From Clostridia bacterium (lineage in GTDB: Bacteria > Bacillota > Clostridia > Oscillospirales > CAG-272), in contig JAGASP010000070.1 of NCBI GenBank assembly GCA_017621695.1, forward strand, positions 126 through 64,125: a stretch of 64,000 nucleotides of DNA, read 5' to 3'. The notes under the pieces are model-generated. The model was given only the letters and a program-made list of their open reading frames with translations. It was not told where the DNA came from and made no database searches. A program made the translations under genes and the position numbers. Positions 13,046 through 31,874 of the stretch are shown piece after piece; the stretch's first letter is position 1; the number at the start of each line of letters is the position of its first letter.

Positions 13046-13069
13046 TCCCACTTATTCTATAGATCCATC

Positions 13070-13093: not shown

Positions 13094-13137
13094 CGGATAT
13101 AAACCAAGTAAATTTTTTTGAAAGGAAAATAAAAACT

Positions 13138-13956
13138 ATGGCACAGTCTCCCTTTGAAATCAAAAAAGAAATCGTTGACATCGGTAAGAGAATCTACGAT
13201 CACGGTTTCGTTGCCGCAAACGACGGTAACATCTCTGTAAAGGTCGGCCCCAATGAGTACTACTGCACCCCCACCGGTGTATCCAAGGGCTTCATGACCC
13301 CCGACATGATCATCAAGATCGATGCCAACGGCAACAAGCTGGACGGTAAGCTGAACCCCTCCTCCGAGATCAAGATGCACATGAGAGTGTATCAGGAGCG
13401 TCCCGATGCAGGTGCCGTCGTTCACGCGCATCCTCCCGTGGCTACCGCCTTCACCGTTGCAGGTGTTGAGCTGGACCAGTACATCCTCCCCGAGGCTATT
13501 CTGACCATCGGTAACGTTCCTACCTGTGACTACGGTATGCCCTCCACCATGGAGATCCCCGAGTCCCTGATGCCCTACATCCAGAAGCACGACGCATTCC
13601 TGCTCAAGAACCACGGTGCTCTGACCGTCGGTAACACCCTGCTCCGCGCTTGCTTCACCATGGAAGAGGTTGAGTTCAACGCAAAGATCAACCTGTACGC
13701 TCGCCAGATCGGTGCAGGCGCCAACAGCCGCATCGACGAGATCTCCTGCCACGAGCTGGAGAGACTCATGGAGCTGCGTAAGAAGATGGGTCTGCCCGGT
13801 AAGCATCCCGGTTGTAAGTCCTGCCCCAACAAGGGTACCGACAAGTGCAAGTGCAAGGACAATGCAGGCAAGTGCGATTGCGGCAACCACGGCAACGCAG
13901 ACAACGATCTCGTCGCTGAGATCACCCGCAAGGTTCTGGCCGCTCTGGGTAAGTAA
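13138..13956 (+). CDS. Class II aldolase (fuculose/rhamnulose-1-phosphate aldolase-like) with Cys-rich linker and C-terminal encapsulation peptide
   Basis: 272 aa. Metal-binding His pattern VVHAHPP and the NDGNIS segment are typical of class II aldolase/adducin domains. An extra ~55-residue C-terminal tail is present. Confidence 0.85.
   Translation: MAQSPFEIKKEIVDIGKRIYDHGFVAANDGNISVKVGPNEYYCTPTGVSKGFMTPDMIIKIDANGNKLDGKLNPSSEIKMHMRVYQERPDAGAVVHAHPPVATAFTVAGVELDQYILPEAILTIGNVPTCDYGMPSTMEIPESLMPYIQKHDAFLLKNHGALTVGNTLLRACFTMEEVEFNAKINLYARQIGAGANSRIDEISCHELERLMELRKKMGLPGKHPGCKSCPNKGTDKCKCKDNAGKCDCGNHGNADNDLVAEITRKVLAALGK
13906..13953 (+). other. C-terminal amphipathic encapsulation-peptide-like helix of the aldolase
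   Basis: DLVAEITRKVLAALGK shows the hydrophobic periodicity of BMC encapsulation peptides. Confidence 0.55.
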
Positions 13957-13999
13957 TTTCCCCGTCGGAACCATTACTTAACAGAAAGGAAGAACCGAC

Positions 14000-15460
14000 A
14001 TGGCAATCAACTGGACTGAAGCGCAGGTTGCCGAGCTGGTCGCGAAGGTCGTCTCCGAGATCCGCTCCGGTTCCCCTGCTCCCGCTACTGAAAACTGGAG
14101 CTCCACCCAGTACAACGGTCGCAAGCTGACCGGCGTTTACGCCACCATGGAGGAGGCCATTGCCGCCGCTGAGGCAGGCTACAAGGCCATCCGTGCTACC
14201 AGCGTCGCTGACCGCGAGAAGTTCATCACTTCCATCCGTAACTACTGCCGCGCCGAAGCAGGCACCATGGCCGCTCTCGGTGTTGCTGAGACCAAGATGG
14301 GTCGCGTGGATCACAAGACCGCCAAGCATATGCTGGTGGCCGACAAGACCCCCGGCACCGAGGACATCGTGGCCGAGGCCAAGACCGGTGACTACGGTCT
14401 GACCCTCACCGAGCGTGCTCCCTTCGGTGTGGTGGGCGCTATCACCCCCTCCACCAACCCCTCCGAGACCGTCATCTGCAACAGCATGGGTATGATCGCC
14501 GCCGGCAACGGTGTGGTATTCAATCCTCACCCCGGCGCTATCGCCACCTCCAACTACGCCGTTGACCTCGTCAACCGCGCCGTACACGCCGCAGGTGGTC
14601 CCGAGGTATTGGTCGCTTCTGTGGCCAAGCCTACGCTGGAAACCGCAGATGTGATGTACAAGCACCCCGCCATTCGCCTGCTGGTCTGCACCGGCGGCCC
14701 CGGCGTGGTCAGAGCCGTTCTCGCCTCCGGCAAGAAGGCCATCGGTGCAGGTGCGGGTAACCCCCCTGTCATCGTGGACGACACCGCCGACATCGAGAAG
14801 GCCGCCAAGGACATCATCGACGGCTGCACCTTCGACAACAACCTCCCCTGCATCGCCGAAAAGGAAGTCTTCGTTTTCAACAACGTGGCTGACCGTCTCA
14901 TCGCCGGTATGCAGAAGAACGGCTGTATCCTCCTCACCCGTGAGCAGGCTGACAAGCTGGCCGAGGTGGTGCTGAACAAGAAGGTCAACGAGAAGACCGG
15001 TAAGGTCTCCTACGTGGTCAACCGCGAATGCGTGGGCCGTGACGCTCGCGTCATCCTCGCCAAGATCGGCATCAACGTGGGTCCCGAGATCCGCTGTGCC
15101 ATCGCCGAGGTTCCCTTCGAGCATCTCTTCGTGCAGGAGGAGCTGATGATGCCCATTCTGGGTATCGTCCGCGTCAAGGACATTGACGAGGCCATTACCC
15201 TGGCCTGCAAGGCCGAGCACGGCAACCGTCACACCGCTCACATGCACTCCAAGAACATCGACAACCTCTCCCGCTTCGCGAAGGAAGTGGAGACCACCAT
15301 CTTCGTCAAGAACGCGCCCTCCTATGCGGGCATCGGTTTTGGCGGCGAGGGTCACACCACCTTCACCATCGCAGGCCCCACGGGCGAGGGTATCACCTCG
15401 GCTAAGTCCTTCACCAGACTCCGCCGCTGCGTGATGGCCGATCATTTTAGAATTATTTGA
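14000..15460 (+). CDS. CoA-acylating aldehyde dehydrogenase (PduP/EutE-like) with N-terminal encapsulation peptide
   Basis: 486 aa with catalytic-Cys region FDNNLPCIAEKE. N-terminus MAINWTEAQVAELVAKVVSEIRSG forms an amphipathic helix followed by a linker. Confidence 0.9.
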   Translation: MAINWTEAQVAELVAKVVSEIRSGSPAPATENWSSTQYNGRKLTGVYATMEEAIAAAEAGYKAIRATSVADREKFITSIRNYCRAEAGTMAALGVAETKMGRVDHKTAKHMLVADKTPGTEDIVAEAKTGDYGLTLTERAPFGVVGAITPSTNPSETVICNSMGMIAAGNGVVFNPHPGAIATSNYAVDLVNRAVHAAGGPEVLVASVAKPTLETADVMYKHPAIRLLVCTGGPGVVRAVLASGKKAIGAGAGNPPVIVDDTADIEKAAKDIIDGCTFDNNLPCIAEKEVFVFNNVADRLIAGMQKNGCILLTREQADKLAEVVLNKKVNEKTGKVSYVVNRECVGRDARVILAKIGINVGPEIRCAIAEVPFEHLFVQEELMMPILGIVRVKDIDEAITLACKAEHGNRHTAHMHSKNIDNLSRFAKEVETTIFVKNAPSYAGIGFGGEGHTTFTIAGPTGEGITSAKSFTRLRRCVMADHFRII

Positions 15461-15610
15461 TTTGGGGCTTTGCCCCAAGCCCCACCAAAGAAACTTTTTG
15501 GAAAAAGTTTCTTTGGAATCTTCAAAAACTTCAAAAGAAATTATTTTAAAGTTCTTTGAATCCAAAACTTTCTTTCAAGAAAGTTTTGGCAGGGTTCGGG
15601 ACAGCGTCCC
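15461..15610. repeat. Family A palindromic repeat cluster (GGGGCTTTGCCCC hairpin plus two AT-centred long palindromes)
   Basis: ggggctttgcccc, ccaaagaaactttttggaaaaagtttctttgg and caaaactttctttcaagaaagttttg. Confidence 0.8.
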
Positions 15611-15638
15611 GATATACTACAGAAAGGAAACAAAAACA

Positions 15639-16868
15639 ATGGATATTTCCGCTAATCAGATTGAAGCCATTGTCCGCCAGGTCGTCGCTTCCATGGGCAC
15701 CGGTTCGGCTCCCAAGGCCGCAGGTCCTCTGCCCAAGGTTGCTAAGGTCGCTATGCTGGTAGGCCCCAAGAAGATCGAGATCCAGGAGGTTCCTCTGCCT
15801 GAGCTGGGCGAGGACGACATCCTCATCAAGGTCGAGGGCGCAGGCATCTGCGGCACCGACGTACACGAGTGGAAGATGGATCCCTTCGGTCTTATGCCCG
15901 TGGTTCTCGGTCACGAGGGCACCGGTGAGGTCGTCTACTGCGGTAAGAACATTACCAAGGACACCGCCGGCAAGCCCATCGGTGTGGGCGACAAGATCGT
16001 CACCTCGGTTATCTCCTGCGGCGACTGCTACAACTGCCGCATGACCCCCGGTCGCACCAACCTCTGCGCCAATCAGGGCGTTTTCGGCCTGATCGGTGAC
16101 AAGAGAGGCACCGACGAAGGCAACCGTGCCAATGGTTGGTTTGCCGACTATATGCTCATCCGCGGCGGTGAGGCTTCGGGCGCGACCTTCTTCCAGGTCA
16201 ACGAGCTGAACCTCAACCAGCGCATGATCCTCGAGCTGGCTTGCGTTTGCGTCCACGCACTCGAGAGAGGCCAGAAGACCGGACTGCTGAACTTCGGTTC
16301 TAAGGTTCTGGTACAGGGCTGCGGCCCCGTGGGTCTGGTGATGATCACCGTTCTCCGCGCTGCCGGTATCAACCACATCATCGCTGTGGACGGTAACGAG
16401 GACAGACTGAAGGTCGCCCAGAAGATGGGTGCCAAGACCACCGTCTGCTTCAAGCGTCCCGACGAGGACACCCTCGACAAGCGCGTGGCCAAGGTGCAGG
16501 CCGTGGCCAACGGTGTCGGCGTTGACTTCGCCTTCCAGTGCACCGGCGCTCCCGTCGCCGCCGCTGACATCTACGCCTACATCCGCCGCGGTGGCGGTAT
16601 GTGCGAGATGGGCTTCTTCGTCAACAACGGCGAGTACTCCGTCAACCCCCACTTTGCTATGTGCAACAAGGAAATCGACATCGTCGGTTCTTGGGACTAC
16701 TCCGCTGAGGACTACCCCAAGACGGTTGCTTTCCTCAAGCAGTGCCAGGAGATGAATATCCCGATTGAGGATCTCATCACCCACACCTACCCCCTCGATC
16801 AGATGAACGAGGCTATGGAGACCAACGTAGCACAGAAGGGCATCAAGATTGCCTACATCGCTAAGTAA
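15639..16868 (+). CDS. Zn-dependent medium-chain alcohol dehydrogenase with N-terminal encapsulation peptide
   Basis: ATG at 15639; the upstream part of ORF 15462 is repeat-derived. GHEGTGEV catalytic-Zn motif, CGDCYNC structural-Zn motif and GCGPVG Rossmann motif. N-terminus MDISANQIEAIVRQVVASM. Confidence 0.85.
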   Translation: MDISANQIEAIVRQVVASMGTGSAPKAAGPLPKVAKVAMLVGPKKIEIQEVPLPELGEDDILIKVEGAGICGTDVHEWKMDPFGLMPVVLGHEGTGEVVYCGKNITKDTAGKPIGVGDKIVTSVISCGDCYNCRMTPGRTNLCANQGVFGLIGDKRGTDEGNRANGWFADYMLIRGGEASGATFFQVNELNLNQRMILELACVCVHALERGQKTGLLNFGSKVLVQGCGPVGLVMITVLRAAGINHIIAVDGNEDRLKVAQKMGAKTTVCFKRPDEDTLDKRVAKVQAVANGVGVDFAFQCTGAPVAAADIYAYIRRGGGMCEMGFFVNNGEYSVNPHFAMCNKEIDIVGSWDYSAEDYPKTVAFLKQCQEMNIPIEDLITHTYPLDQMNEAMETNVAQKGIKIAYIAK

Positions 16869-16885
16869 GAAAAGGAGTTACCGAT

Positions 16886-17236
16886 ATGGCAGCTCTTGGA
16901 ATGCTTGAAGTTTATGGATTTGCCACCTCTATTGTCGTTGCCGATGCCTGCGCAAAGGCCGCTGACGTAAAGATCGTGGCCATCGACCGTAACAAGCCCG
17001 CCAACGCCGATCAGTGCGAGGTGCCGCTTGTGATGGTCGTCAAATTCGAGGGTGACCCCGCCGCCGTCGAGGCTGCTCACGACGCGGGCAAGGCTGAGGC
17101 TGAGAAGCGCGGTCTGTTCATCACCTCGAAGATCATTGCGGGACTGGATCCCAGTGTGGAGTGGTTCGCACATCTGACCGCTACCGGTCGCGACAAGCTC
17201 CGCAATTACACCACCGTTGACGGCCGAAAGGTCTGA
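16886..17236 (+). CDS. BMC-H shell protein variant with enlarged pore loop and C-terminal extension
   Basis: BMC-domain start [10 protein letters not shown]. The loop [16 protein letters not shown] replaces the usual SEKIGSGL. About 25 extra C-terminal residues. Confidence 0.8.
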
Positions 17237-17289
17237 TGACCGCCGTCGCGATACAACACACAAAAATAAATTTTAAGGAGAATAATACA

Positions 17290-17562
17290 ATGAACGAAGC
17301 TCTTGGTATGGTTGAAACTCGTGGTCTCGTAGCTGCAATCGAGGCAGCTGATGCAATGGTTAAGGCCGCTAACGTTACTCTGATCGGCTCTGAGAAGATC
17401 GGTTCCGGTCTCGTGTCCGTCATGGTCCGTGGCGACGTCGGTGCTGTAAAGGCCGCTGTTGAGGCCGGTGGCGCTGCCGCTTCCCGTCTCGGCGAGGTCA
17501 TCGCTACTCACGTCATCCCCAGACCCCACACCGACGTGGACAAGCTCCTGCCCTCCATCTAA
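17290..17562 (+). CDS. BMC-H shell protein (PduA/PduJ-like), copy a
   Basis: [29 protein letters not shown]...[29 protein letters not shown]. Confidence 0.93.
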
Positions 17563-17652
17563 GGAACGAGGGGCTTTGCCCCTGACCCCCACCAGAAACC
17601 CTTTTTGAAAAAAGGGTTTCTGGACTTCCCAAAAACTTTAAAAAAGTTCTTG
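17563..17652. repeat. Family A palindromic repeat element
   Basis: ggggctttgcccc hairpin, then cagaaaccctttttgaaaaaagggtttctg palindrome, then ccaaaaactttaaaaaagttcttgg. Confidence 0.8.
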
Positions 17653-17702
17653 GATAATGGGAAACGTTCTTTGCCTACCAAACGAAAGCGAGGTACTGAA
17701 AC

Positions 17703-17987
17703 ATGGAAAAGGCAATCGCACTCTTGGAAGTCCAGGCAATGGTCACCGCCATTGTAGGTCTTGACGCGATGGTCAAGGCCGCCGACGTGAAGCTGATTCA
17801 CGTTGAAAAGCGCTTGGGCGGACGACTCGTCACACTTGTGGTCGAGGGAAGTGTTTCCGCTGTTCAGGCCGCCGCCGAAGCCGGCAAAGCTGCCGCTGCC
17901 GAGGTTGGTCCCGTCAAGCTCTGTGAGGTCATCGCTCGTCCTCACGAGGAAGTTATGAAGTTCCTTCGCACCGATCCCGTGCCCTGA
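17703..17987 (+). CDS. BMC-H shell protein with Arg-containing pore motif
   Basis: 94 aa, KAIALLEVQAMVTAIVGLDAMVKAADV. Pore loop is EKRLGGRL rather than EKIGSGL. Confidence 0.88.
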   Translation: MEKAIALLEVQAMVTAIVGLDAMVKAADVKLIHVEKRLGGRLVTLVVEGSVSAVQAAAEAGKAAAAEVGPVKLCEVIARPHEEVMKFLRTDPVP

Positions 17988-18076
17988 TGCAAGGATCGAC
18001 CGCGAATGCAACTTATATACGCAACCCCCACTAAAACAAATTTAAAAAAGTAAATTTTCTTTAGGAGGAAAATACA

Positions 18077-18349
18077 ATGAACGAAGCTCTTGGTATGGTT
18101 GAAACCAGAGGTCTTGTGGCTGCCATCGAGGCTGCCGATGCTATGGTCAAGGCTGCTAACGTAACCCTGATCGGCTCCGAGAAGATCGGTTCCGGTCTCG
18201 TCTCCGTCATGGTTCGCGGCGACGTTGGTGCTGTGAAGGCTGCTGTTGAGGCAGGCGGCGCTGCTGCTTCCCGTCTCGGCGAGGTCATCGCTACTCACGT
18301 CATCCCCAGACCCCACACCGACGTGGACAAGCTCCTGCCCAAGATCTGA
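18077..18349 (+). CDS. BMC-H shell protein (PduA/PduJ-like), copy b
   Basis: The 90-aa product is identical to copy a except residue 88 (K versus S). Confidence 0.93.
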
Positions 18350-18356
18350 TTGATCT

Positions 18357-18427
18357 GAGAGGAGTACGCGAGGGAGGAACCTTCTTGCAAGAAGGTTCCC
18401 CCTCGACCCCCTTCAAGAACCTTTCAC
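18357..18427. repeat. Family A palindromic repeat element (variant)
   Basis: ggagtacgcgaggg head followed by the gggaggaaccttcttgcaagaaggttccccc palindrome. Confidence 0.75.
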
Positions 18428-18585
18428 AAAACAGGATTTATCCGTTATTGATTTTACCTCCGAAAGCATTGAAAAAGCACCGAATCCGTCGCAGGAGGTC
18501 CGCATTACGGAGCGATGCCTGTTACTGCCCCCTCGGATATTTAAATGTATGAATGAAAGAGCATTTCCGAATCGCGAAGTGATTT

Positions 18586-18614
18586 TTGATTTTTACATTT
18601 TGGTTTATTAAGAT
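18586..18614 (+). promoter_or_regulatory. Weak internal promoter candidate upstream of pduL
   Basis: TTGATT, 17-nt spacer, TAAGAT. Sequence match only. Confidence 0.3.
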
Positions 18615-18638
18615 ATTGAAGAAAAGAGGTTACATATC

Positions 18639-19295
18639 ATGGAAATCAATGCCCAGTCTATTGAAGCCATCGTCAAGAAGATCGTCTCCGAGATGGAATC
18701 CCCCGCGTCTTCCGATGACCTGACCATTCCCGTTGGTATTTCCAACCGTCATATTCACCTGTCCCGCGAGGATCTGGACACCCTGTTCGGCAAAGGCTAT
18801 GAGTTGACTCCCATCAAGGATCTGTCTCAGCCCGGGCAGTATGCCTGCAAGGAAGTTTGCACCATCATCGGCCCCTCCATGCGCTCCATTGAGAACGTGC
18901 GCATCCTGGGTCCCATCCGCAAGCAGAGCCAGGTAGAAATTTCCGTAACCGATTCCTTCGTTCTGAAGGTCAAGCCTCCCGTGCGTGAATCCGGTAGCCT
19001 TGCAGGCTCCGCTCCCGTGACCATCGTAGGCCCCAAGGGTATCGTTACCCTCAAGGAAGGTTGCATCATCGCCAACCGCCACATCCATATGAGCCCCGCC
19101 GACGGCGCTCGCTTCGGTGTCAAGGACGGTGACTACATCGACGTAGATGCCATGGACGGCACCAAGCGCACCCGCTGGTTCGACGTGCAGGTTCGCGTTT
19201 CCGACAAGTTCTGCCTGGAGATGCACGTGGACACCGACGATGCAAACGCCGTAGGCTACAAGAACGGCAGCAAAGTCACCATGGTGAAGAAGTAA
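18639..19295 (+). CDS. pduL: Phosphate propanoyl/acyl-transferase PduL with N-terminal encapsulation peptide
   Basis: Duplicated NRHIH motifs (SNRHIHLS, ANRHIHMS). N-terminus MEINAQSIEAIVKKIVSEM. Confidence 0.92.
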   Translation: MEINAQSIEAIVKKIVSEMESPASSDDLTIPVGISNRHIHLSREDLDTLFGKGYELTPIKDLSQPGQYACKEVCTIIGPSMRSIENVRILGPIRKQSQVEISVTDSFVLKVKPPVRESGSLAGSAPVTIVGPKGIVTLKEGCIIANRHIHMSPADGARFGVKDGDYIDVDAMDGTKRTRWFDVQVRVSDKFCLEMHVDTDDANAVGYKNGSKVTMVKK

Positions 19296-19327
19296 TTCCA
19301 CAAACACAAATATAACAGGAGTACATC

Positions 19328-19591
19328 ATGCTCAAAGGTAAAGTGGTGGGGAACATTGTCTCCACAAATAAATTCGACGAGCTCAGAGGTTACAAATTCC
19401 TCGAGATCCAATTGATCGAAAACAAGACCTTGACCGACAAGTATATCATTGCGGTGGATCGCTCCATCAGCGCCGGTATCGGCGAGGAGGTTCTTGTCGT
19501 AACAGGCTCCAGCGCACGCGTGGCTGTGGGGGATATCAATTCTCCCGTGGATGCCGTTGTTGCAGGTATCATCGATAAGATCCAGAACTAA
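19328..19591 (+). CDS. BMC-P pentameric vertex protein (EutN/CcmL/PduN family)
   Basis: 87 aa, MLKGKVVGNIVSTNK...AVDRSISAGIGEEVLVVTGSSAR. Confidence 0.9.
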   Translation: MLKGKVVGNIVSTNKFDELRGYKFLEIQLIENKTLTDKYIIAVDRSISAGIGEEVLVVTGSSARVAVGDINSPVDAVVAGIIDKIQN

Positions 19592-19633
19592 AAAATTCAT
19601 TTGAATAAATCTTTTACATAAAAGGTGTTTCTT

Positions 19634-20959
19634 ATGTCCGATCTAAAACAACTTTTAAAGGATAACGGTGTCGTTGGCGCGGGCGGCGCAGGCTTCCCCT
19701 CCTACTGCAAGCTGGCTGAGGGTGCTGATACGCTCATCATCAATGCCGTGGAGTGTGAGCCTCTGCTTTACACCAGCTACACCCTCATGCAAAACCGTAT
19801 CCGTGACATCGTCATCGGTATGCGCGCCGTCATGGAATACGCCCACATCCCGAGAGGTCTGATTGCCGTCAAGGGCTATCGCGCCGAAAAGCTGGGCTTT
19901 GCCGATGAGCAGGAGCTCGCCGAGGGTGTGTTCATCAAGTACGTTCCCAACGTCTACCCCATGGGTGACGAGATCAACCTCATCTACACCGTTACGGGTC
20001 GCGTGGTTGCCCCCGGGCAGCTCCCCATTACCCAGAAGGTCATCGTTTTCAACATCGAAACCATGCACAACATCGGTTTGGTGGCACAGTACGGTCAGCC
20101 CGTAACCAAGACTTACCTGACGCTGGCAGGCGACATTCCCGAGGCGTTCTGTATCAAGGTGCCTCTGGGTATGAAGATCTCTGAGGTGCTGGAAACCATG
20201 AAGATCAAGGTGCCCGACACCCACGTGGTCATTGACGGCGGCCCCTCCATGGGTAACATCGTCAACCCCAATGTGGACGTGGTAAAGAAGCCCACCTCGG
20301 GTCTGCTTATCCTGCCCAAGGATATCCCCGCCGTTCGGAGCAAGCTCCGCACCGCCGAGGAGAACTTCCGCATGGCCGCCTCGGTCTGCTGTCAGTGCAC
20401 CCGTTGCACGGATCTCTGCCCGAGACACCTGTTGGGCTATCCGCTGGAGCCCCACAAGATGATCCGCGCCACACTCAGCACCTCGCAGGCCGATCCCGAG
20501 CTCATTAAGACCGCCACCATGTGTTGCGGCTGCGGCATTTGCGGACTGCTGGCTTGCTGTCAGGACATCTCGCCCATGCAGGTCATCAAGGAATACAAGG
20601 GCATTCTGGCCAAGAACAGGATGAAGTATGTAGCCAACCCCTCTGATGTGTTTAACGCTTCGCCGGAGCGCGAGTATCGCATGATCAGCGCAGGCAAGTG
20701 GAAGGAAGTTTTGGGCGTGGCCAAGTACGACAAATTCCCTCCCACCTACATCGACGAAAAGCTGAAGGCCAAAGAGGTCTACGTCCCTATGGTACAGCAC
20801 ATCGGCGCCCCCGCCATCCCCATCGTCAAGGTCGGCGACGAGGTCAAGGAGAACGACATGATCGCCAAGGCCGCCGAGGGGCTGTCGGTTCCCAACTTCG
20901 CCCCCATCACCGGTCGCATTACCTATGTGGATGATAAAACCATTGTGATTCGCGCATAA
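19634..20959 (+). CDS. PduS/RnfC-like flavin and Fe-S oxidoreductase
   Basis: GAGGAGFPS nucleotide-binding motif. Two Cys clusters (CCQCTRCTDLCP and CCGCGICGLLACC). An alternative GTG start at 19625 is possible. Confidence 0.85.
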   Translation: MSDLKQLLKDNGVVGAGGAGFPSYCKLAEGADTLIINAVECEPLLYTSYTLMQNRIRDIVIGMRAVMEYAHIPRGLIAVKGYRAEKLGFADEQELAEGVFIKYVPNVYPMGDEINLIYTVTGRVVAPGQLPITQKVIVFNIETMHNIGLVAQYGQPVTKTYLTLAGDIPEAFCIKVPLGMKISEVLETMKIKVPDTHVVIDGGPSMGNIVNPNVDVVKKPTSGLLILPKDIPAVRSKLRTAEENFRMAASVCCQCTRCTDLCPRHLLGYPLEPHKMIRATLSTSQADPELIKTATMCCGCGICGLLACCQDISPMQVIKEYKGILAKNRMKYVANPSDVFNASPEREYRMISAGKWKEVLGVAKYDKFPPTYIDEKLKAKEVYVPMVQHIGAPAIPIVKVGDEVKENDMIAKAAEGLSVPNFAPITGRITYVDDKTIVIRA

Positions 20960-20979
20960 GAAGAAGAGGTATATAGACT

Positions 20980-21525
20980 ATGTATCAGGCTATTGGTATT
21001 ATTGAACTGAAAAGCATTGCCAAGGGCATCGAGGCCACCGACGCCGCGCTGAAGAGTGCGGGCATCCGTCTGGTGCAGGCGCACCCCTCCTGCCCCGGCA
21101 AATACGAGATCATTCTGACGGGCGCGATCGCCGACGTGACCGCTGCTGTGGATCACGTCAAGGGTCGTTTTGACGACCGCATGATCGACTCCGCCGTGAT
21201 CGGCCGCATTGACGAGCAGGTCATCACCGCTCTGTTCGGCACGCAGGCAGGCGAGCGCAAGGGCTCCCTCGGTATCATCGAGGCATACTCTGCCGCCTCC
21301 ACCATCAAGGCCGCCGATATCGCCGTCAAGACCGCCAAGGTCGCCATCCACGAGCTCCGTTTGTCTCGCGGCATGGGCGGTAAGGGCATGGTGCTTATCA
21401 CAGGCGACGTGGGTGATGTGACCGCCGCCGTGGAAGCAGGCGCACAGCACGCCAAGGATCAAGGGCTGTTTTGCAACTCTGCCGTCATCCCCGCCCCCCA
21501 CAAGGAGCTTTGGGAGCAATTATAA
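20980..21525 (+). CDS. BMC-T tandem-domain shell protein (PduT-like)
   Basis: 181 aa with two BMC domains. Cys38 in PSCPGKY sits at the position of the PduT pore [4Fe-4S] ligand. Confidence 0.88.
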   Translation: MYQAIGIIELKSIAKGIEATDAALKSAGIRLVQAHPSCPGKYEIILTGAIADVTAAVDHVKGRFDDRMIDSAVIGRIDEQVITALFGTQAGERKGSLGIIEAYSAASTIKAADIAVKTAKVAIHELRLSRGMGGKGMVLITGDVGDVTAAVEAGAQHAKDQGLFCNSAVIPAPHKELWEQL

Positions 21526-21610
21526 GGAGTACGCAAGGGGCGTTGCCCCTTGACCCCACCGGAAACCTTCTTAAAAGAAGGTTTCTGGACTTCCAAGAAC
21601 CTTTGATGAA
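21526..21610. repeat. Family A palindromic repeat element
   Basis: ggagtacgcaaggggcgttgcccc hairpin followed by the ggaaaccttcttaaaagaaggtttc palindrome and a ccaagaac tail. Confidence 0.8.
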
Positions 21611-21778
21611 AAGGATATTTACCAAGTGAGTAAATACCCGAAAAGAACGGTCGTTTTTTGTTCTATCCAGGGTATTTCACATCACGACCGAGAGCGCGTA
21701 TGCCGCCCATGTGGGTTCTCTACCCCACAGTTATATAACCGAGCAAACAATTCCACTTTATATAATGAGGTTTTTACA

Positions 21779-24310
21779 ATGTCTGAAATCAAATTTACCA
21801 TTGAAAAGAGCCCCCGTATCGCCAAGCTGGTCGCCGATCTCTATGCCAATATGCCCGAGATCGAGGCTGACCGTGCCGAACTGATCACAGAAAGCTACAA
21901 GATGACAGAGCACCTGCCCCTCATCAAGCGCCGCTCTGCCGCTTTTCGTCACATCCTGGAGAACATTCCGATCGTCATCCGTCCCCATGAGCTGATCGTC
22001 GGTTCCAGCTCGGTCGCTCCCCGCGGATGCCAGACCTTCCCCGAGTTCTCCTACGAGTGGCTCCCTCCCGAGTACGAAACCATCGCTACCCGCGAGGCTG
22101 ATCCCTTCTACATTTCCCCCGACACCATCCGCCGTCTGGAGGCCGTTCATCCTTACTGGAAGGGCAAGACCGTCAGTGACCTGGCCGCATCCAATATGGA
22201 TCCCGAGGTGCTGGACGTATTCCTCAACCACGGCATCTTCACCGTCGGTAACTATTTCTACAATGGCGTCGGCCACGTCAATGTAAATTATGAAAAGGTC
22301 ATCAAGATCGGCTACGAGGGCATCGCTGACGAGGCTCGTGCAGAGCTCTCCAAGCTGACTCGCGGTCAGGGCGACTATGCCTCCAAGCGTAACTTCCTGG
22401 AAGCTGTGATCGAGAGCTGCGAGGCCGTCATCACCTACGCCCGCCGCTATTCCGATCTGGCACTCCACGAAGCCGCTGAGTGCACCGATTCCACCCGTAA
22501 GGCAGAGCTGCTCACCATTGCTGAGGCCTGTGACCATGTTCCCGCCAAGCCCGCTCGCTCCTTCCACGAGGCTTGCCAGGCCTTCTGGTTCGTCCAGCAG
22601 CTCATGCAGATGGAATCCTCGGGTCACTCCATCTCTCCCGGACGCTTTGACGTTTATATGTACCCCTACTTTAAGGCCGACCTGGACGCGGGTAAGATCA
22701 CCTACGAATCCGCCCAGGAGCTGCTCGACTGCATCTGGGTCAAGCTCAACGACCTCAACAAGGTGCGTGATGCCGCTTCCGCCGAGGGCTTTGCAGGCTA
22801 CGGTCTGTTCCAGAACCTCATCGTCGGCGGTCAGGATGAATACGGCATGGACGTGACCAACGATCTGTCCTATATGTGCATGGAAGCACAGATGCACGTG
22901 CGTCTGCCCCAGCCTTCCCTCTCCATCCGCGTATGGAACGGCTCTCCCCATTCCCTGCTCATCAAGGCTGCCGCCGTCACCCGCGAGGGTATGGGCGTGC
23001 CTGCCTTCTATAACGACGAAGTCATCATCCCCTCCATGATGTCCCGCGGCTATACCCTTGAGGATGCCCGCACCTACTGCATCATCGGTTGCGTAGAACC
23101 CTCCGCTTGCCACAGAACCGACGGCTGGCACGACGCCGCCTTCTTCAACATGGTTCGTCCTTTGGAGCTTGTCTTCTCCTCGGGTATGGACAAGGGCGAG
23201 CAGATCGGCCCCAAGACCATGGACGTTTTGGAGATGACCTCCTTCGAGCAATTCTACGATGCGTACAAGACCCAGCAGGAATTCTTCATTGAGATGATGG
23301 CACAGGCCGATAACGCCGTAGACGCGGCGCACGCGGCTCGTTGTCCCCTGCCCTTCGAGTCCTGCATGATCGACGATTGTATCGCCAACGGCAAGAGCGT
23401 GCAGGAGGGCGGTTGTCACTACAACTTCACAGGCCCTCAGGGCTTCGGTATTGCCAACGTGGCCGACTCTCTGGCCGTCATGCGCAAGCTGGTCTTTGAG
23501 GATGGCGTGATCTCCATGGCTGAGATGAAGCAGGCTCTCTCCGATAACTTCGGCAAGGGTGCCACCACCAAGCGCGCCCTGGAGCTGACCACCGAGGCTG
23601 CCAAGATGCTGGATGCCGACGGCGTGGACGTCAACGAGGCGCTGATCAAGGCACTCTACGACAGCTTCCGCACCGCCGCCACCATCTCTGCCGACAAGAA
23701 GGCTCGCTACGACGAGATCCTTGCCATGATCGCAGACGTACCCAAGTACGGCAACGACCTGCGCGAGGTTGACCTCTTCGCCCGCGAAGTGGGTCAGACC
23801 TACACCAAGCCTCTGCTGCAGCACACCAATCCTCGCGGCGGTATCTTCCACGCAGGACTGTATCCCGTATCCGCCAACGTGCCGCTGGGTCACCAGGCAG
23901 GCGCGTCCCCCGACGGACGTTTGTCCAATACCCCCATTGCTGACGGTGTCGGCCCCATGTCGGGTCGTGACGTGAAGGGCCCGACGGCTACTGCCAACTC
24001 GGTGTCCCGCCTCGACCTCGGTGACGCCTCCAACGGCACCCTCTTGAATCAGAAATTCCATCCCTCGGCTCTGGCCGGTGAAATGGGGCTCGAGAAGTTC
24101 GTGGCTTACCTCCGCGGCTTCTTCGATCAGAAGGGCATGCACGTCCAGTACAACGTCATCTCCCGCGAGACCCTCTTGGACGCACAGGCACATCCCGAAA
24201 ATTACAAAACGCTGGTGGTTCGTGTGGCCGGTTACTCCGCCCTCTTCACCACCCTTTCCCGCTCCCTCCAGGACGACATCATCAGCCGTACCGAGCAATC
24301 CAGCCTGTAA
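21779..24310 (+). CDS. Glycyl radical enzyme, B12-independent diol (1,2-propanediol) dehydratase-like
   Basis: 843 aa from the ATG at 21779. Glycyl radical motif VRVAGYSA near the C-terminus and catalytic Cys loop IIGCVEPS. Substrate is inferred from the aldolase-containing locus context. Confidence 0.88.
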   Translation: MSEIKFTIEKSPRIAKLVADLYANMPEIEADRAELITESYKMTEHLPLIKRRSAAFRHILENIPIVIRPHELIVGSSSVAPRGCQTFPEFSYEWLPPEYETIATREADPFYISPDTIRRLEAVHPYWKGKTVSDLAASNMDPEVLDVFLNHGIFTVGNYFYNGVGHVNVNYEKVIKIGYEGIADEARAELSKLTRGQGDYASKRNFLEAVIESCEAVITYARRYSDLALHEAAECTDSTRKAELLTIAEACDHVPAKPARSFHEACQAFWFVQQLMQMESSGHSISPGRFDVYMYPYFKADLDAGKITYESAQELLDCIWVKLNDLNKVRDAASAEGFAGYGLFQNLIVGGQDEYGMDVTNDLSYMCMEAQMHVRLPQPSLSIRVWNGSPHSLLIKAAAVTREGMGVPAFYNDEVIIPSMMSRGYTLEDARTYCIIGCVEPSACHRTDGWHDAAFFNMVRPLELVFSSGMDKGEQIGPKTMDVLEMTSFEQFYDAYKTQQEFFIEMMAQADNAVDAAHAARCPLPFESCMIDDCIANGKSVQEGGCHYNFTGPQGFGIANVADSLAVMRKLVFEDGVISMAEMKQALSDNFGKGATTKRALELTTEAAKMLDADGVDVNEALIKALYDSFRTAATISADKKARYDEILAMIADVPKYGNDLREVDLFAREVGQTYTKPLLQHTNPRGGIFHAGLYPVSANVPLGHQAGASPDGRLSNTPIADGVGPMSGRDVKGPTATANSVSRLDLGDASNGTLLNQKFHPSALAGEMGLEKFVAYLRGFFDQKGMHVQYNVISRETLLDAQAHPENYKTLVVRVAGYSALFTTLSRSLQDDIISRTEQSSL

Positions 24311-24510
24311 CAAGGGGCTTTGCCCCTTGACCCTACCAGAACCCTTCTTGAAAGAAGGGTTCTGGACTCCCAAGAACCTTCAAAACATTTATTGATCCTA
24401 TCTCAACAAATCCTTTCCCCATAAACAAATCCCTTTTTAAAGGTTTTTGGAATTCTTAAAACCTTTTTTGCAAAAAGGTTTTAAGCGGGGTTTGGGGCAG
24501 AGCCCCAACG
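24311..24510. repeat. Inverted pair of family A elements (forward 24311-24385, reverse 24437-24510)
   Basis: ggggctttgcccc...agaacccttcttgaaagaagggttct on one side, and aaaaccttttttgcaaaaaggtttt...ggggcagagcccc on the other. Confidence 0.8.
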
Positions 24511-24538
24511 TTCTCCCAACCCCAGAAAGGACATTCAT

Positions 24539-25345
24539 ATGGCTAATTACTACGACCGCGTCGGTCGCATTTTTGATATTCAGCGCTTCTCCATCCACGA
24601 CGGGCCGGGCATTCGGACCATCGTGTTTCTGAAGGGGTGCTACCTGCGGTGCCGTTGGTGCTGCAATCCCGAGTCCCAAGAATATAAATTTCAGGAGATG
24701 ACCATGAACGGCACCACCAAGACGGTGGGGCAGGACATATCCGTCCGCGACCTCATGGAGGAGCTTGTGAAGGACGAGGTCTACTACCGCCGATCGGGCG
24801 GCGGCATCACGTTGTCGGGCGGTGAGGCTATGGCTCAGCCCGAGTTCGCCGAGGCCATCTTCCGTGCCTGCCACGATCGGGGATTTAACACCGCCATCGA
24901 GACTACGGCCTTCGCCGAGCGAGACGTGGTGGCTCGTCTGATCCCCCATATCGACCACGTCATGATGGATATCAAGCACATGGACTCCGCCAAGCACAAG
25001 GCGTACACGGGGCAGCCCAACGAGAAGATTTTGGACAACGCCCGCTGGATCGCCGAGAATGCTCACCATTTGGTGATCCGCGTCCCCGTGATCCCCGGCT
25101 TCAACGATACGCCCGAAGAGATCGCCGCCATCGCGCGTTTTGCCGAGTCTCTGCCGAACGTCCATGAGCTGCACCTGCTTCCCTACCACAGACTGGGAAC
25201 CGACAAGTACACGGGTCTGGGGCGCGAGTACACCCTCTCCCATCTGACTCCCCCCACCGCCGCGCATATGAAGATGCTCAAGGAGACCGCCGAGCGGGAA
25301 TCCCAGAAGCTGACCTGCCATCTTCGGGTGCAAATCGGCGGATAA
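24539..25345 (+). CDS. Glycyl-radical-enzyme activating enzyme (radical SAM), short PflA-like form
   Basis: CYLRCRWC (CxxxCxxC) and GGGITLSGGE motifs. 268 aa with no Cys-rich ferredoxin-like insert. Confidence 0.9.
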   Translation: MANYYDRVGRIFDIQRFSIHDGPGIRTIVFLKGCYLRCRWCCNPESQEYKFQEMTMNGTTKTVGQDISVRDLMEELVKDEVYYRRSGGGITLSGGEAMAQPEFAEAIFRACHDRGFNTAIETTAFAERDVVARLIPHIDHVMMDIKHMDSAKHKAYTGQPNEKILDNARWIAENAHHLVIRVPVIPGFNDTPEEIAAIARFAESLPNVHELHLLPYHRLGTDKYTGLGREYTLSHLTPPTAAHMKMLKETAERESQKLTCHLRVQIGG

Positions 25346-25349
25346 GAAA

Positions 25350-25412
25350 CGGAAGAACGCCAAAGGAATTTTTTGAAAAAGTTCCTTTGGAATCCTCAAA
25401 AGCTTTCAAAAA
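25350..25412. repeat. Family A palindromic element (lacks the GGGGC hairpin)
   Basis: ccaaaggaattttttgaaaaagttcctttgg palindrome plus an atcctcaaaagc tail. Confidence 0.7.
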
Positions 25413-25576
25413 AGCTATTATTGTTACTGGCATTCACCATTGAGATTCCGCCGTTCCGTCATCCTGCGCGAAGCACGGAGTGCGGAGTTGAACCCAAAGG
25501 GCGTTGCGTAGCACCGGGATCTCCTTTCCCGTGTCAGATTACGTGTCCCTTTCCCAACCTTTAAGGAGCATATCAA

Positions 25577-25945
25577 ATGAAAGAACTGGAAATGCACGAT
25601 AAAATGAGGATCGTACAGGAGCTGGTGCCCGGACGGCAGATCACACTACTCCACGTCATCGCCAATCCCGATCCCATTCTTTATCAGAAATTGGGTCTTG
25701 ATCCTAAGCTGGACTACTCCCACGCCGCCATCGGTGTGTTGACCGTCAGCCCCGCCGAGACCGCCGTCATCACCGCCGACATCGCCATGAAGTCTGCCAA
25801 CGTTGATCTGGGATTCGTGGATCGCTTCTCGGGCACCCTCATCATCACAGGTCGTGTCTCCGAGGTGGACTCCGCCTTCACCGCTATCGGTGAGTATTTC
25901 AGAGACACCCTCAAATTCACGGTCTGCGAGAAGACCCGCACTTAA
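25577..25945 (+). CDS. PduU/EutS-type (circularly permuted) BMC shell protein
   Basis: RIVQELVPGRQITLLHVIANP...GFVDRFSGTLIITG matches the PduU/EutS pattern. Confidence 0.88.
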   Translation: MKELEMHDKMRIVQELVPGRQITLLHVIANPDPILYQKLGLDPKLDYSHAAIGVLTVSPAETAVITADIAMKSANVDLGFVDRFSGTLIITGRVSEVDSAFTAIGEYFRDTLKFTVCEKTRT

Positions 25946-26025
25946 GGGAACGAGGGGCTCTGCCCCTGACCCCCGCCTAAAACCTTCTTGAAAGAAGGTT
26001 TTAGGAATTCCAAGAACTTTTAACA
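25946..26025. repeat. Family A palindromic repeat element
   Basis: gaacgaggggctctgcccctgaccccc followed by the aaaaccttcttgaaagaaggtttt palindrome and a ttccaagaacttttaa tail. Confidence 0.8.
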
Positions 26026-26047
26026 AGGATATATCAACTGTATATCT

Positions 26048-26503
26048 ATGAAAAAACTCATACTTATGGGTCGCGTAGCGGCGGGCAAGACCACCCTGAC
26101 GCAAGCGTTGCGGGGCGAACAGCTCCACTACTGCAAGACCCAATACATCAACTACCACAACACCATCATCGACACCCCCGGGGAGTACACCGAGGTGGCC
26201 AAGCTGGGCGCGGCGCTGGCGCTGTACGCCTATGAGGCCGACATCGTAGGCCTGGTCATCGGCGCGGACGAGCCCTTTTGCGTGTTCCCACCCTGCTGTA
26301 CCTGTCTTGTCAACCGTCCCGTCATCGGTATTATCTCGGGCATCGACCGCGAGGGTGCCAACATCGAGCAGGCCGAGCGCTGGCTGAAGCTCTGCGGATG
26401 CGAGAAGATCTTCCCCTGCAGCTCCTATACGGGGGAGGGCCTCACGGCCATCATTGACCACCTCCGTGAGCCCACCGATGCACCGGATGCCTTACCTGTT
26501 TGA
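26048..26503 (+). CDS. EutP/PduV-family small GTPase
   Basis: P-loop GRVAAGKTT and DTPGE switch motif in a 151-aa protein. Confidence 0.85.
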   Translation: MKKLILMGRVAAGKTTLTQALRGEQLHYCKTQYINYHNTIIDTPGEYTEVAKLGAALALYAYEADIVGLVIGADEPFCVFPPCCTCLVNRPVIGIISGIDREGANIEQAERWLKLCGCEKIFPCSSYTGEGLTAIIDHLREPTDAPDALPV

Positions 26504-26598
26504 AATTTCGGTAGGGCACACTTATGTGTGCCCCTACAAGCATCCCCTCATACCGTAGGGGAGGCCCTGTGTGGCCTCCCGTCCATCCAAAATTTCGG
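26503..26598. repeat. Family B double-hairpin element flanked by a 9-bp direct repeat
   Basis: gggcacac/gtgtgccc and gggaggcc/ggcctccc hairpins. aaatttcgg occurs at 26503-26511 and again at 26590-26598. Confidence 0.7.
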
Positions 26599-26613
26599 AT
26601 CAAGGAGGCCACC

Positions 26614-27405
26614 ATGGCTAAAACCAAAGTCATTTGCTTCGCCAACAACAAGGGCGGCAGCGGCAAATCCACCACCTGTGCCAACGTGGGATACAGCATG
26701 GTCACCGAAGGCAAGAAGGTTCTGCTCATCGACGGCGATATGCAGATGAACCTGACGCTGTCTTATTTCGATGAGGATGCGGCGTTGGGCTTTGCCGAAA
26801 GCGGCGAAAATCTTTACACCGCCATCAAGGGGCAAAAGGAACTGACCCCCTTCATCCGCCACACAGCCTATGAAGGACTGGATCTCATTCCCTCCTCTAC
26901 CCTCATGAGCGGCATCGAGGTCGATCTCTTTACCATGTGGCAGAGAGAGTTTATTTTGAAGCAGGGACTTGCCAAGATCAAGGAATCCGATGCTTACGAC
27001 TACATCCTTATCGACGCGCCTCCCACGCTGGGCTGTTGGGTCATGAACATTATGTGCGCCTCGGACTACCTCATCATCCCCGTAGAGGCATCTCCTTGGG
27101 GTCTGTTCGGCATCGCCAACCTCTTTGAGTTCTATGAAAAGCTCCAGAGACTGGCTCCCGATCTCTCCATCATGGGTATCGTGGTCACCAAGGCCAACGA
27201 GAGAAAGAACCAGTTCAAGCAGGCCATGGAGGTTCTGGGATCCCTCGACAACGTCCGTCTGTTTGAAAACTATATCCGTATTGACAGTACCATCGAATGG
27301 TCCCAGGAAAACAGTCTGCCCGTCATGGCTTACAAAAAATCCAGCCGTGCCGCCCAGGAATATCTTGAACTCACCAAGGAGGTTATGAACTATGCCCATC
27401 GGTAA
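26614..27405 (+). CDS. ParA/MinD-family P-loop ATPase (orphan; McdA-like candidate)
   Basis: ATG at 26614 preceded by AAGGAGG. Deviant Walker A NNKGGSGKST, A-prime LLIDGDMQ and Walker B ILIDAPP. Confidence 0.9.
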   Translation: MAKTKVICFANNKGGSGKSTTCANVGYSMVTEGKKVLLIDGDMQMNLTLSYFDEDAALGFAESGENLYTAIKGQKELTPFIRHTAYEGLDLIPSSTLMSGIEVDLFTMWQREFILKQGLAKIKESDAYDYILIDAPPTLGCWVMNIMCASDYLIIPVEASPWGLFGIANLFEFYEKLQRLAPDLSIMGIVVTKANERKNQFKQAMEVLGSLDNVRLFENYIRIDSTIEWSQENSLPVMAYKKSSRAAQEYLELTKEVMNYAHR

Positions 27406-27796
27406 GGACAGCATCCAGAAGAGAGTGGCCAAGGCCACCGACGCAGCACCCGCAGAAGAAGTAAAGGCCGAGGCGACCGTACCCGCTGAAGAGCCTGCCG
27501 CCAAGAAGACCGCCACGGCAAAGGGTACCTCCTCGGGTACCAAAAAGGCAACGTCTGCCGCCACCGGCGCCAAGAAGCCCGCTGCAAAGGCAACCGCTGC
27601 AAAGGCAGCCGCTCCCAAGGCCGCAACTGCCAAGAAGCCCGTTACAAAGCCTGCTGCTCCCAAGGCAGAAGAGCCTGCCACCGCCGTGCTCTCCAACGTC
27701 TCCCCTGAGACCGTCGCCGCCGTCATCGGCCATGACGAGAAGAAGCCCTCGGATAAGGTGAAGATCGGCCAGAAGATGCCGACGTATTTGCTGTAA
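27392..27796 (+). CDS. Small basic intrinsically disordered Ala/Lys/Pro-rich protein (ParA partner; McdB-like candidate)
   Basis: 134 aa. Overlaps the parA 3' end by 14 nt and has an AAGGAGG RBS. Codon usage matches its neighbours (AAG, GCC, ATC). A strong terminator follows. Confidence 0.7.
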   Translation: MPIGKDSIQKRVAKATDAAPAEEVKAEATVPAEEPAAKKTATAKGTSSGTKKATSAATGAKKPAAKATAAKAAAPKAATAKKPVTKPAAPKAEEPATAVLSNVSPETVAAVIGHDEKKPSDKVKIGQKMPTYLL

Positions 27797-27816
27797 ATCG
27801 AAACCGAATACAAAAG

Positions 27817-27860
27817 AACCGCATCGCGGAGGAATTTCTCCCCGCGATGCGGTTTTGTCA
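27817..27860. terminator. Strong rho-independent terminator (possibly bidirectional)
   Basis: Perfect 13-bp stem aaccgcatcgcgg / ccgcgatgcggtt followed by ttttgtc. It sits between convergent genes. Confidence 0.85.
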
Positions 27861-27888
27861 TTCGTATGCAAATTTGACAGGCGCTTAC

Positions 27889-28539: not shown

Positions 28540-28632
28540 GGTTTTTCTCTCTTTCTCATGGATTCTCTATGTGCCCTGCGCTATGCAAAACAGCATACCC
28601 GCCGTCAGCAATCACACAGCACGGTTGTATGC

Positions 28633-29574: not shown

Positions 29575-29691
29575 GGTACTTTCCTTTCTTTGATCAAACG
29601 CACTCGGGGTGCTTATATATGTAGTCCCCGTTTGCATAACAATCTTTCGAGCTTTTTTAAAATATTAAAATATTTTTTCAGAAGTAATCGT

Positions 29692-31710: not shown

Positions 31711-31874
31711 AGGTCTTATTTCCTCCCGAAAGCTTTTTCCCATTATACCATCTCTCCGACGGTGTGTCAAGGGGGAGAAAGTTCAAAATGCAGTTTCTTT
31801 ATCTCCGCATAAACCCTTGGAAATTCGGACATGATATTTTTGCCATGAGATCACTAAAAAAATAGATGTCTCCA

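Follow-up and report, generated by a model that had tools for sequence, protein, structure and literature searches.

The 64,000-nt stretch of DNA from a Clostridia bacterium analysed here (contig JAGASP010000070.1; hereafter the window) contains a complete glycyl-radical enzyme microcompartment (GRM) locus at 13138..26503 on the forward strand, which includes a class II aldolase and is assigned by Pfam scans to the fucose/rhamnose (GRM5-like) type. At the 3' end of this locus, on the same strand, lie a gene for a ParA-type ATPase and an overlapping gene for a small basic protein, referred to below as the partner. The preliminary description of this DNA had proposed that the two proteins position GRM compartments in the manner of the McdAB system of carboxysomes, which is the sole worked-out system for the spacing and inheritance of such organelles. 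Sequence comparisons now give good support for placing the pair among the McdAB-like systems that have been predicted for glycyl-radical metabolosomes, and its adaptor may be distinctive in binding DNA. The pair comprises the following elements:

26614..27405, + strand: parA, encoding a ParA-type ATPase of 263 aa (open reading frame, Pfam, PHROG and PDB comparison)
27377..27383, + strand: AAGGAGG ribosome-binding site of the partner gene, within parA and 9 nt 5' of the partner ATG (sequence)
27392..27796, + strand: partner gene, 134 aa, with a 14-nt overlap with parA
27392..27433, + strand: partner residues 1-14, MPIGKDSIQKRVAK, predicted ParA-binding/-stimulating peptide
27434..27679, + strand: partner residues 15-96, disordered, histone-H1-like A/K/P/T linker (composition and predicted local distance difference test, pLDDT)
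27680..27796, + strand: partner residues 97-134 and stop codon, C-terminal module TAVLSNVSPETVAAVIGHDEKKPSDKVKIGQKMPTYLL, predicted cargo (shell)-binding end

The ATPase reading frame and its nucleotide-binding motifs, as given in the preliminary description, are upheld by open reading frame (ORF) and profile scans. The protein carries a deviant Walker A box with the signature lysine (NNKGGSGKST; K13, K18), an A' motif (LLIDGDMQ; D40/D42 region) and a Walker B motif (ILIDAPP). It matches Pfam AAA_31 at 1.6e-51 (175 bits, cutoff 27) and CbiA at 4.6e-18 (65.8 bits, cutoff 25.4), as well as phrog_164, ‘ParA-like partition protein’, at 4.3e-62; a scan of NCBIfam gave no equivalog at its cutoff. 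The deviant Walker A, the profile scores above threshold and the aspartates of the A' and Walker B motifs together place it in the ParA/MinD family. Its best solved relatives are the chromosomal ParA/Soj proteins, namely Myxococcus xanthus ParA (8RAY, 1.7e-29) and Helicobacter pylori Soj (HpSoj; 6IUB, 3.6e-24), followed by the cyanobacterial McdA (6NON/6NOO, 2.5e-14 over residues 5-192 only) and MinD (4e-12). The top 120 homologue matches are all orthologues, with at least 74% identity over the full length and no outgroup among them. The closest plasmid ParA found by tblastn is 40.5% identical, as against 60-97% for the orthologues linked to bacterial microcompartment (BMC) loci.

Across 112 ParA orthologues K13 and K18 are invariant, and R111, K193, R197, K198, K202, R222, K241, K242 and R245 are invariant or nearly so. 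R197 lines up with the arginine of the ‘DxR’ motif of M. xanthus ParA, and we take this column to be the position of Arg189, which binds non-specific DNA in Bacillus subtilis Soj. The HpSoj lysine aligned with K202 is presumably the DNA-binding K199, and K202 and K241/K242 would thus align with or beside HpSoj lysines that we assume to contact DNA, in the numbering of Chu et al. 2019. K241/K242 fall near HpSoj K247, two further HpSoj lysines are not conserved, and the protein ends 4 residues beyond the end of the Soj alignment. A conserved basic surface of this kind is compatible with a ParA that binds the nucleoid, though it is no proof of one.

The partner gene is equally well defined. Its coordinates, the 14-nt overlap and the ribosome-binding site inside parA all proved correct as first described, and the overlap is unchanged in every locus examined. 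A count of the residues matched the earlier hand count (34 Ala, 23 Lys, no Cys, Trp or Phe) and gives a net charge of +11 and a pI of 9.85. A search of 5.8 billion proteins returned 312 homologues, none of which has a function assigned by any source; most are unnamed and a few are labelled ‘hypothetical protein’ or bear stray names. Because more than 300 homologues share invariant termini, the reading frame is a real gene and not a low-complexity artefact. The family is nevertheless narrow, with 97 clusters at 50% identity in a profile search of 1.84 billion representative proteins. Comparison of the partner with Pfam, NCBIfam and PHROGs assigned it to no family, the lone match being a chance one to a topoisomerase III tail (E 0.065). 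Neither these three databases nor the AlphaFold2 (AF2) model, which lacks a fold, revealed a ParB/Srx, helix-turn-helix (HTH) or ribbon-helix-helix (RHH) domain.

In alignments of 27 and 109 sequences the partner is built as one would expect of a ParA adaptor, with a basic, predicted helical N-terminus that a disordered linker joins to a conserved C-terminal module. In the 109 sequences, M1, P2, I3, G4, K5, S7, I8, R11, V12 and A13 are invariant (consensus MPIGKDSIxxRVAK), and the first 14 residues have a mean net charge of +3. The linker ranges from 41 to 92 aa across the family and varies in sequence but not in composition, with a median A+K+P+T content of 74% and a median net charge of +6. 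The residues F/W/Y/C/M/L/I/H are absent from the linker of the window partner and have a family median of 0%; this linker is 18% K+R, has a net charge of +7 and contains the internal DNA repeats D11. The C-terminal end, which the preliminary description had regarded as a short hydrophobic segment, is in fact a conserved module of fixed length (TAVLxNVSPETVAAVIGHxE...V.IGxKMPxYLL), exactly 38 aa in all type-A members and closing in [ML]PxYLL. Within it V99, N102, P105, E106, V108, V111, G113, H114, E116, G126, K128 and P130 are invariant, and position -3 is Y/F/H in 116/117 sequences (Y 53, F 38, H 25, S 1), the window protein having Tyr (Y132). AF2 bears out the disorder that had been proposed: the mean pLDDT is 58, and only two short helices are modelled, at residues 6-16 (pLDDT ~77) and 105-112, with pLDDT ~42-55 in the linker and ~78 in the extended tail. 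No coiled coil is predicted and the protein is probably monomeric.

Two other readings of partner sequences were discarded. A truncated RHH at the C-terminus was dropped since all homologues end at the same place, and a supposed natural ParA-partner fusion, P0167 (357 aa), proved to be an internal duplication. In a further homologue, P0266 (174 aa), the C-terminal 38-aa module stands behind an N-terminal zinc ribbon in place of the MPIGK peptide, an architecture reminiscent of the ‘orphan’ alpha-McdB type 2 proteins that lack an McdA-binding end.

The linkers of this family are of particular interest with regard to DNA. Most members carry a K/A/P/T tract like that of histone H1, with some weak matches to Pfam HC2 (PF07382). 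In P0255 (1.5e-16), P0257 (3.6e-18) and P0262 (2.4e-13) an FtsK-gamma winged helix is inserted between the N-terminal peptide and the linker; the FtsK-gamma-bearing gene at 10001-10696 of L051 occupies the usual place after parA in a GRM locus. At least six family members have a canonical AT-hook (RRSPGRPRK and similar; VRRSPGRPRKTP) in a lysine-poor linker, a call that rests on the PGRPRK motif itself because the motif is too short for hmmscan. The AT-hook partners of L061, L063, L064 (10001-10411), L065 and L068 belong to a human-gut lineage and stand at GRM loci. A cysteine cluster, CAACGEC, is also seen near the N-terminus of these AT-hook partners.

The occurrence of three different DNA-binding solutions at one position suggests that contact with DNA is part of the job of the adaptor, and the linker is probably more than a passive or phase-separating spacer. 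Between the peptide that activates ParA and the tail that binds cargo, different lineages may independently have placed one of three elements, namely a K/A/P tract like that of H1, an AT-hook or an FtsK-gamma winged helix, and the AT-hook variants are poor in lysine as if the hook took the place of the K-rich tract. Such an adaptor would by itself keep the metabolosome attached to the nucleoid, and would bring the activating peptide to DNA-bound ParA within a three-way ParA-DNA-adaptor complex. DNA binding has been excluded for the McdB proteins of Synechococcus elongatus (PMC6328274 Fig. 2K) and Halothiobacillus neapolitanus (PMC12139897 Fig. S3B). That the GRM-linked adaptors, unlike these carboxysomal McdBs, bind DNA and so form a distinct mechanistic class of organelle-positioning adaptor is a tentative proposal, which we hold to be somewhat less probable than its opposite. 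In the case of the window partner's own linker, it is the composition from which DNA binding is suggested.

The genes preceding the pair tie it to the compartment. The GRM locus and the genes that adjoin the pair are as follows:

13138..26503, + strand: GRM locus, comprising in order class II aldolase, aldehyde dehydrogenase (AldDH), zinc-dependent alcohol dehydrogenase (Zn-ADH), 4 BMC-H, PduL, EutN/BMC-P and PduS-like proteins, then BMC-T, glycyl radical enzyme, activase, PduU/EutS-type shell protein and PduV GTPase
25577..25945, + strand: PduU/EutS-type circularly permuted BMC-H shell protein, 122 aa (PDB sequence matches and synteny)
26048..26503, + strand: PduV/EutP-family small GTPase (Pfam PF10662, 1e-45)
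26504..26613, + strand: structured pduV-parA spacer of 110 nt, bounded by direct AAATTTCGG repeats
27817..27854, no strand assigned: strong hairpin terminator separating the partner gene from the convergent gene at 27889-28539 (-)

The product of 25577..25945 matches 4AXI at 2.9e-31, PduU (3CGI) at 5.8e-28 and EutS at 2e-26, and a gene of this type is invariably found upstream of pduV-parA-partner in related GRM loci. In the window, the third-codon-position GC content (GC3) of the pair agrees with that of the GRM locus, and, as had been noted before, no ParB, HTH, integrase, relaxase or replication domain occurs in the scanned proteins of the neighbourhood.

Relatives were sampled via short conserved peptide patterns. 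A GTDB scan with one genome per species yielded 37 loci, all from gut metagenome-assembled genomes of Clostridia, Eubacteriales or Oscillospiraceae, with ParA 67-97% and partner 34-66% identical to those of the window. In 37/37 of these species-level genomes parA lies directly 5' of the partner gene with the same overlap and, where the contig extends far enough, is preceded by BMC-H x4, pduL, eutN, pduS, BMC-T, glycyl radical enzyme, its activating enzyme, pduU-like and pduV, in this order. The series glycyl radical enzyme, activase, PduU-like, PduV, ParA and partner was likewise recovered in six type-A metagenome lineages, whose partners are 51-66% identical to that of the window. In two lineages of a divergent type B (MPIGKNSxKRVxNNGYS...; ParA 60-63% identical) the pair also ends a GRM-type locus, and the FtsK-gamma and AT-hook variants are found at GRM loci too. 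The genes 3' of the pair vary by lineage (MFS/ArsB, Sel1/HTH_26, DNA polymerase III delta, PRK, rhamnosidase and others). The distance from pduV to parA ranges from a 4-10-nt overlap to 242 nt; in several lineages the two genes overlap or stand 12-24 nt apart. The script that measured this gap produced four artefactual values of -792, the one case inspected (L022) having a gap of ~18 nt. Since the gap is 24 nt or less in ~20/49 loci, co-transcription is favoured.

The preliminary description had held that pairs lying mainly away from BMC loci, for example on plasmids, would speak against a role in compartment positioning. This is not the distribution found: partner homologues of both types are absent from 72,556 plasmids and from the IMG/VR viral contigs, and every informative metagenome contig, with the exception of one lineage assigned to Blautia, has the pair at the 3' end of a GRM locus. 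The expected co-occurrence with GRM loci held in the 37 genomes wherever the contig reaches and in the metagenome lineages, but not, within 10 kb of the pair, in Blautia. As the synteny is invariant over ~45 lineages while the downstream flanks change, the genomic evidence strongly favours a functional tie between the pair and the GRM compartment. The pair is not a mobile-element partition system, for the partner has no homologue on the plasmids and viral contigs searched, the plasmid ParA proteins are distant and there is no ParB/RHH/HTH domain.

The Blautia pairs constitute a third subfamily (MSVGKDSILRAAN...ELPVYLL, 116-120 aa), with a ParA 63% identical to that of the window and the same 14-nt overlap (L054/L055, 9223-10357; L057, 9223-10360). 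They are flanked by a NUDIX gene upstream and a DUF2798 gene downstream, and the assignment to Blautia comes from a neighbouring polyphosphate kinase and from ParA itself. A survey of human-microbiome BMCs records GRM5 and/or PDU1 loci for Blautia species (PMC8156839 supplement), and the stand-alone pair could therefore parallel the alpha-McdAB pairs that are found away from the cso operon.

Taken together, these data make it probable, although by no means assured, that the pair is a dedicated ParA-type positioning and partitioning system of the GRM metabolosome and a functional analogue of the carboxysomal McdAB. In such a system ATP-bound ParA dimers would coat the nucleoid, and the partner would sit on the outside of the compartment, held by its C-terminal module with the aromatic [ML]PxYLL tail. 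The long, disordered, basic linker would reach to the nucleoid, probably touching DNA itself, and the amphipathic basic helix at the N-terminus of the partner would be offered to the DNA-bound ParA dimers. Contact with this helix would stimulate ATP hydrolysis and the local release of ParA, and the resulting zones of ParA depletion would act as a Brownian ratchet that spaces the compartments over the nucleoid and hence secures their inheritance. In this scheme it is proposed that ParA binds the nucleoid and contacts the partner, that the partner binds the shell and, with its own linker, DNA, and that the compartments are positioned as a result. The positioning role put forward in the preliminary description thus gains a tie to the locus by synteny, although as a concept it is not new, having been anticipated in the literature.

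A number of observations weigh against this interpretation. A profile of the 109 partners found nothing in the PDB at E <0.04, with weak uS19 noise at ~0.04, although the McdB-like structure described by Schumacher et al. 2019 is presumably among the PDB entries. No specific tie of the ATPase to McdA emerged when it was tested against the solved McdA (6NON/6NOO), Soj/ParA being closer; the described McdA types are themselves heterogeneous. The modules in the linkers would be equally expected of an adaptor whose cargo is DNA. Relatives were sampled by short peptide patterns, so that distant homologues in other contexts may have been missed. The Blautia pair is surrounded by housekeeping genes and has no BMC gene within 10 kb, which implies that the family is not strictly BMC-encoded and that its cargo could be something else. 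The partner contains no Trp and thus lacks the invariant C-terminal Trp of McdB (PMC8262871). Finally, the Pdu compartments of Salmonella are positioned without ParA or MinD (PMC12866334), and metabolosomes do not, therefore, generally need such a system.

Several of these points would be accommodated if the ParA system were directed at DNA, the partner being an atypical ‘ParB-like’ binder of a chromosome or nucleoid region and its position at the GRM locus a matter of history. The recurrence in the linkers of FtsK-gamma (1.5e-16, 2.4e-13 and 3.6e-18) and of the AT-hook PGRPRK, the greater likeness of the ATPase to chromosomal ParA/Soj and the Blautia pair situated away from BMC genes all agree with this. 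It is, however, hard to reconcile with the retention of the pair at the end of the GRM operon in ~45 lineages with differing flanks, often with translational coupling to pduV, or with the restriction of the family to Clostridia lineages whose relatives have GRM5 or propanediol utilization (PDU) loci. Moreover, conservation in the partner is highest in a C-terminal peptide module, which is not a DNA-binding fold, homologues of the partner on plasmids or phages were not found, and iterated centromere-like repeats are missing near the pair, the sole repeats being REP-like (repetitive extragenic palindromic) elements scattered through the operon. We consider a DNA cargo quite unlikely.

A different proposal leaves the positioning role intact and concerns the docking site: the C-terminal module could bind PduV and/or the PduU-type hexamer instead of generic shell facets, in which case the pduU-like gene, pduV, parA and the partner gene would form one positioning module. 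All GRM-linked loci have the four genes side by side in the same order, the shell protein of 122 aa belongs to the PduU/EutS type, and PduV has been suggested to act in the positioning of PDU BMCs (cited in PMC4207490 and PMC8262871). On the other hand, the Blautia pair has no adjacent pduU or pduV, and the [ML]PxYLL tail is kept across subfamilies in which the PduU-like and PduV proteins encoded upstream share only 64-67% identity with those of the window. Such specific docking is unlikely in our judgement. Far more improbable is that the partner acts inside the compartment, as an assembly scaffold or a disordered protein lining the shell (CsoS2- or encapsulation-peptide-like), with ParA serving assembly or quality control and not spacing. 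The partner is indeed basic and disordered, and its short amphipathic helix PETVAAVI (residues 105-112) recalls the encapsulation peptides of the same locus, e.g. the N-termini of AldDH and PduL. Yet two hallmarks of a ParA partner are present, an invariant N-terminal peptide and translational coupling to parA; a lumenal protein would be out of reach of nucleoid-bound ParA, and AT-hook and FtsK-gamma modules would make no sense within a compartment. A positioning system of the GRM metabolosome thus remains the reading that we prefer.

Other features of the region were also noted. The 110-nt gap between pduV and parA was already known from the preliminary description and is in addition a strongly structured element, with a predicted RNA fold of -52.2 kcal/mol (z -5.7) whose last hairpin pairs GUGGCCUCC with the parA Shine-Dalgarno and might keep the translation of ParA low. 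The spacer (26504..26613) is not a terminator because it has no U-tract, and it is missing from many related loci, in which pduV and parA abut or overlap. The hairpin at 27817-27854, with 14-15 pairs, -36 kcal/mol and a z of -6.3, is the strongest and only strong terminator-like site in 11000-29000, in agreement with its earlier description as the only strong terminator directly after the pair; as it lies between convergent genes, it probably serves both. A sigma-70-like site lies within pduV at 26307-26334 (+) (TTGTCA-16-TATTAT, 10/12), ~280 nt 5' of parA; the 13 such sites found in the region, against 9.8 expected, are not above chance. An Rfam scan of window positions 1-64000 found no family at its gathering score and no riboswitch ahead of the GRM operon.

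Most of the larger gaps within the GRM operon are filled by REP-like palindromic intergenic elements (GGGGCxTTGCCCC ... AACCTTCTTGAAAGAAGGTT), which occur in both orientations, at 15457-15585, 17563-17652, 18378-18397, 21530-21603, 24307-24380, 24432-24506, 25369-25419 and 25947-26028. They make up the repeat families D3-D5, D8 and I1-I7 of the window and lengthen several predicted ORFs, e.g. the long ones from 15462 and 21626. The BMC-H genes at 17273-17560 and 18060-18347 share 90% DNA identity (repeat D1), indicative of recent paralogues, and this same duplication is also seen in related loci. Downstream of the pair, three convergent genes (27889-28539, 28633-29637 and 29692-31770, all on the - strand) encode lipoprotein-like products with a signal-peptide-like, Cys-containing N-terminus followed by T/E/A-rich low-complexity linkers; weak matches were obtained to PsbP for one of these products and to GH99 for one. 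Genes of this kind are also located behind the pair in L003 and L012, but not in other lineages.

With its N-terminal activating peptide, 38-aa module and cognate ParA, the family represents a sharply defined candidate for the positioning of GRM metabolosomes in gut Clostridia. GRM organelles of this type process propanediol derived from fucose and rhamnose. The short conserved termini can be used as mutagenesis targets and may be portable tags for the positioning of engineered compartments, and the DNA-binding modules of the linkers suggest a mechanistic twist on the McdAB ratchet. The concept will not surprise a specialist. The question becomes experimentally approachable through the sharp definition of the family and its motifs, through the variants with DNA-binding modules and through the homologues in Blautia, the last of which move it into cultivable organisms.

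Among known systems, PduV-based positioning of PDU compartments shares with the window a PduV encoded in the operon, here directly upstream of the pair and beside a PduU-type shell protein, and both PduV and pduU have been implicated in BMC positioning (PMC4207490). PduV is, however, a Ras-like GTPase without ParA-type chemistry, and the PDU system of Salmonella has PduV but no dedicated ParA (PMC12866334). The pair resembles ParA/Soj-ParB(Spo0J) in the sequence of its ATPase, in the aligned DNA-binding Arg and in the principle of activation through an N-terminal peptide; in ParB, the helix that binds ParA combines a hydrophobic face with a single key basic residue (PMC12462528). It differs in having no ParB/Srx CTPase domain, HTH, parS, or plasmid or origin context, and in its 134-aa disordered partner.

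The likeness to McdAB is closer. As required of an McdA, the ParA gene lies within or next to a BMC operon with the partner gene immediately downstream, and, of the five core features of McdB (PMC8262871), the partner displays four, namely disorder, a biased and repetitive composition, low hydrophobicity and a charged N-terminus. The alpha-McdAB of H. neapolitanus similarly consists of a ParA with the signature Lys and an almost fully disordered partner encoded immediately downstream. The McdA-binding N-terminal peptide of its McdB contains L4, K7, L8 and I12 (PMC12139897) and forms a basic helix (~20 aa) with one key basic and several hydrophobic residues, for which I3, K5, I8, R11 and V12 are the counterparts in the window partner. 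A short C-terminal aromatic motif suffices for cargo binding by H. neapolitanus McdB, and the window partner also ends in an aromatic motif. The alpha-McdAB pairs are found both inside and away from a BMC operon, as are those of the window family (cf. Blautia). Despite these parallels, no sequence homology to the H. neapolitanus system was detected, the window family has Tyr/Phe/His where McdB has Trp, and its cargo would be a catabolic glycyl-radical metabolosome in anaerobic Clostridia.

The closest match is with the McdAB-like pairs already reported bioinformatically beside GRM and PDU operons (MacCready 2021, PMC8359340; Basalla 2024, PMC11321042). To judge from the description in PMC8359340 Fig. 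8f, these too consist of a ParA gene followed by that of a small disordered partner in or beside a non-carboxysome BMC operon. The McdA- and McdB-like genes of such operons, the subject of work by the Vecchiarelli and Ducat groups, are experimentally uncharacterised (PMC8262871), which bears out the earlier remark that pairs of this kind have been predicted and that none has been characterised for a GRM. According to PMC8359340 section 2.9 and PMC11321042 Fig. 4, the McdB-like proteins of PDU/GRM loci have Tyr/Phe within their last 4-5 residues and no Trp. The window partner, with Tyr at -3 (Y/F/H in the family), conforms to these proteins and not to McdB proper (PMC11321042). The preliminary description was therefore right that a C-terminal Trp is absent but not in concluding that this sets the partner apart as a distinct adaptor class, since the missing Trp is common to the published PDU/GRM McdB-like proteins, at least as depicted in those sections. 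The parts of the published descriptions considered here do not include the 38-aa C-terminal module, His at -3, the DNA-binding modules of the linkers or stand-alone pairs such as those of Blautia. What appears to be new is thus the presence, within an McdB-like family, of linker DNA-binding modules in the form of H1-like repeats, AT-hooks and an inserted FtsK-gamma.

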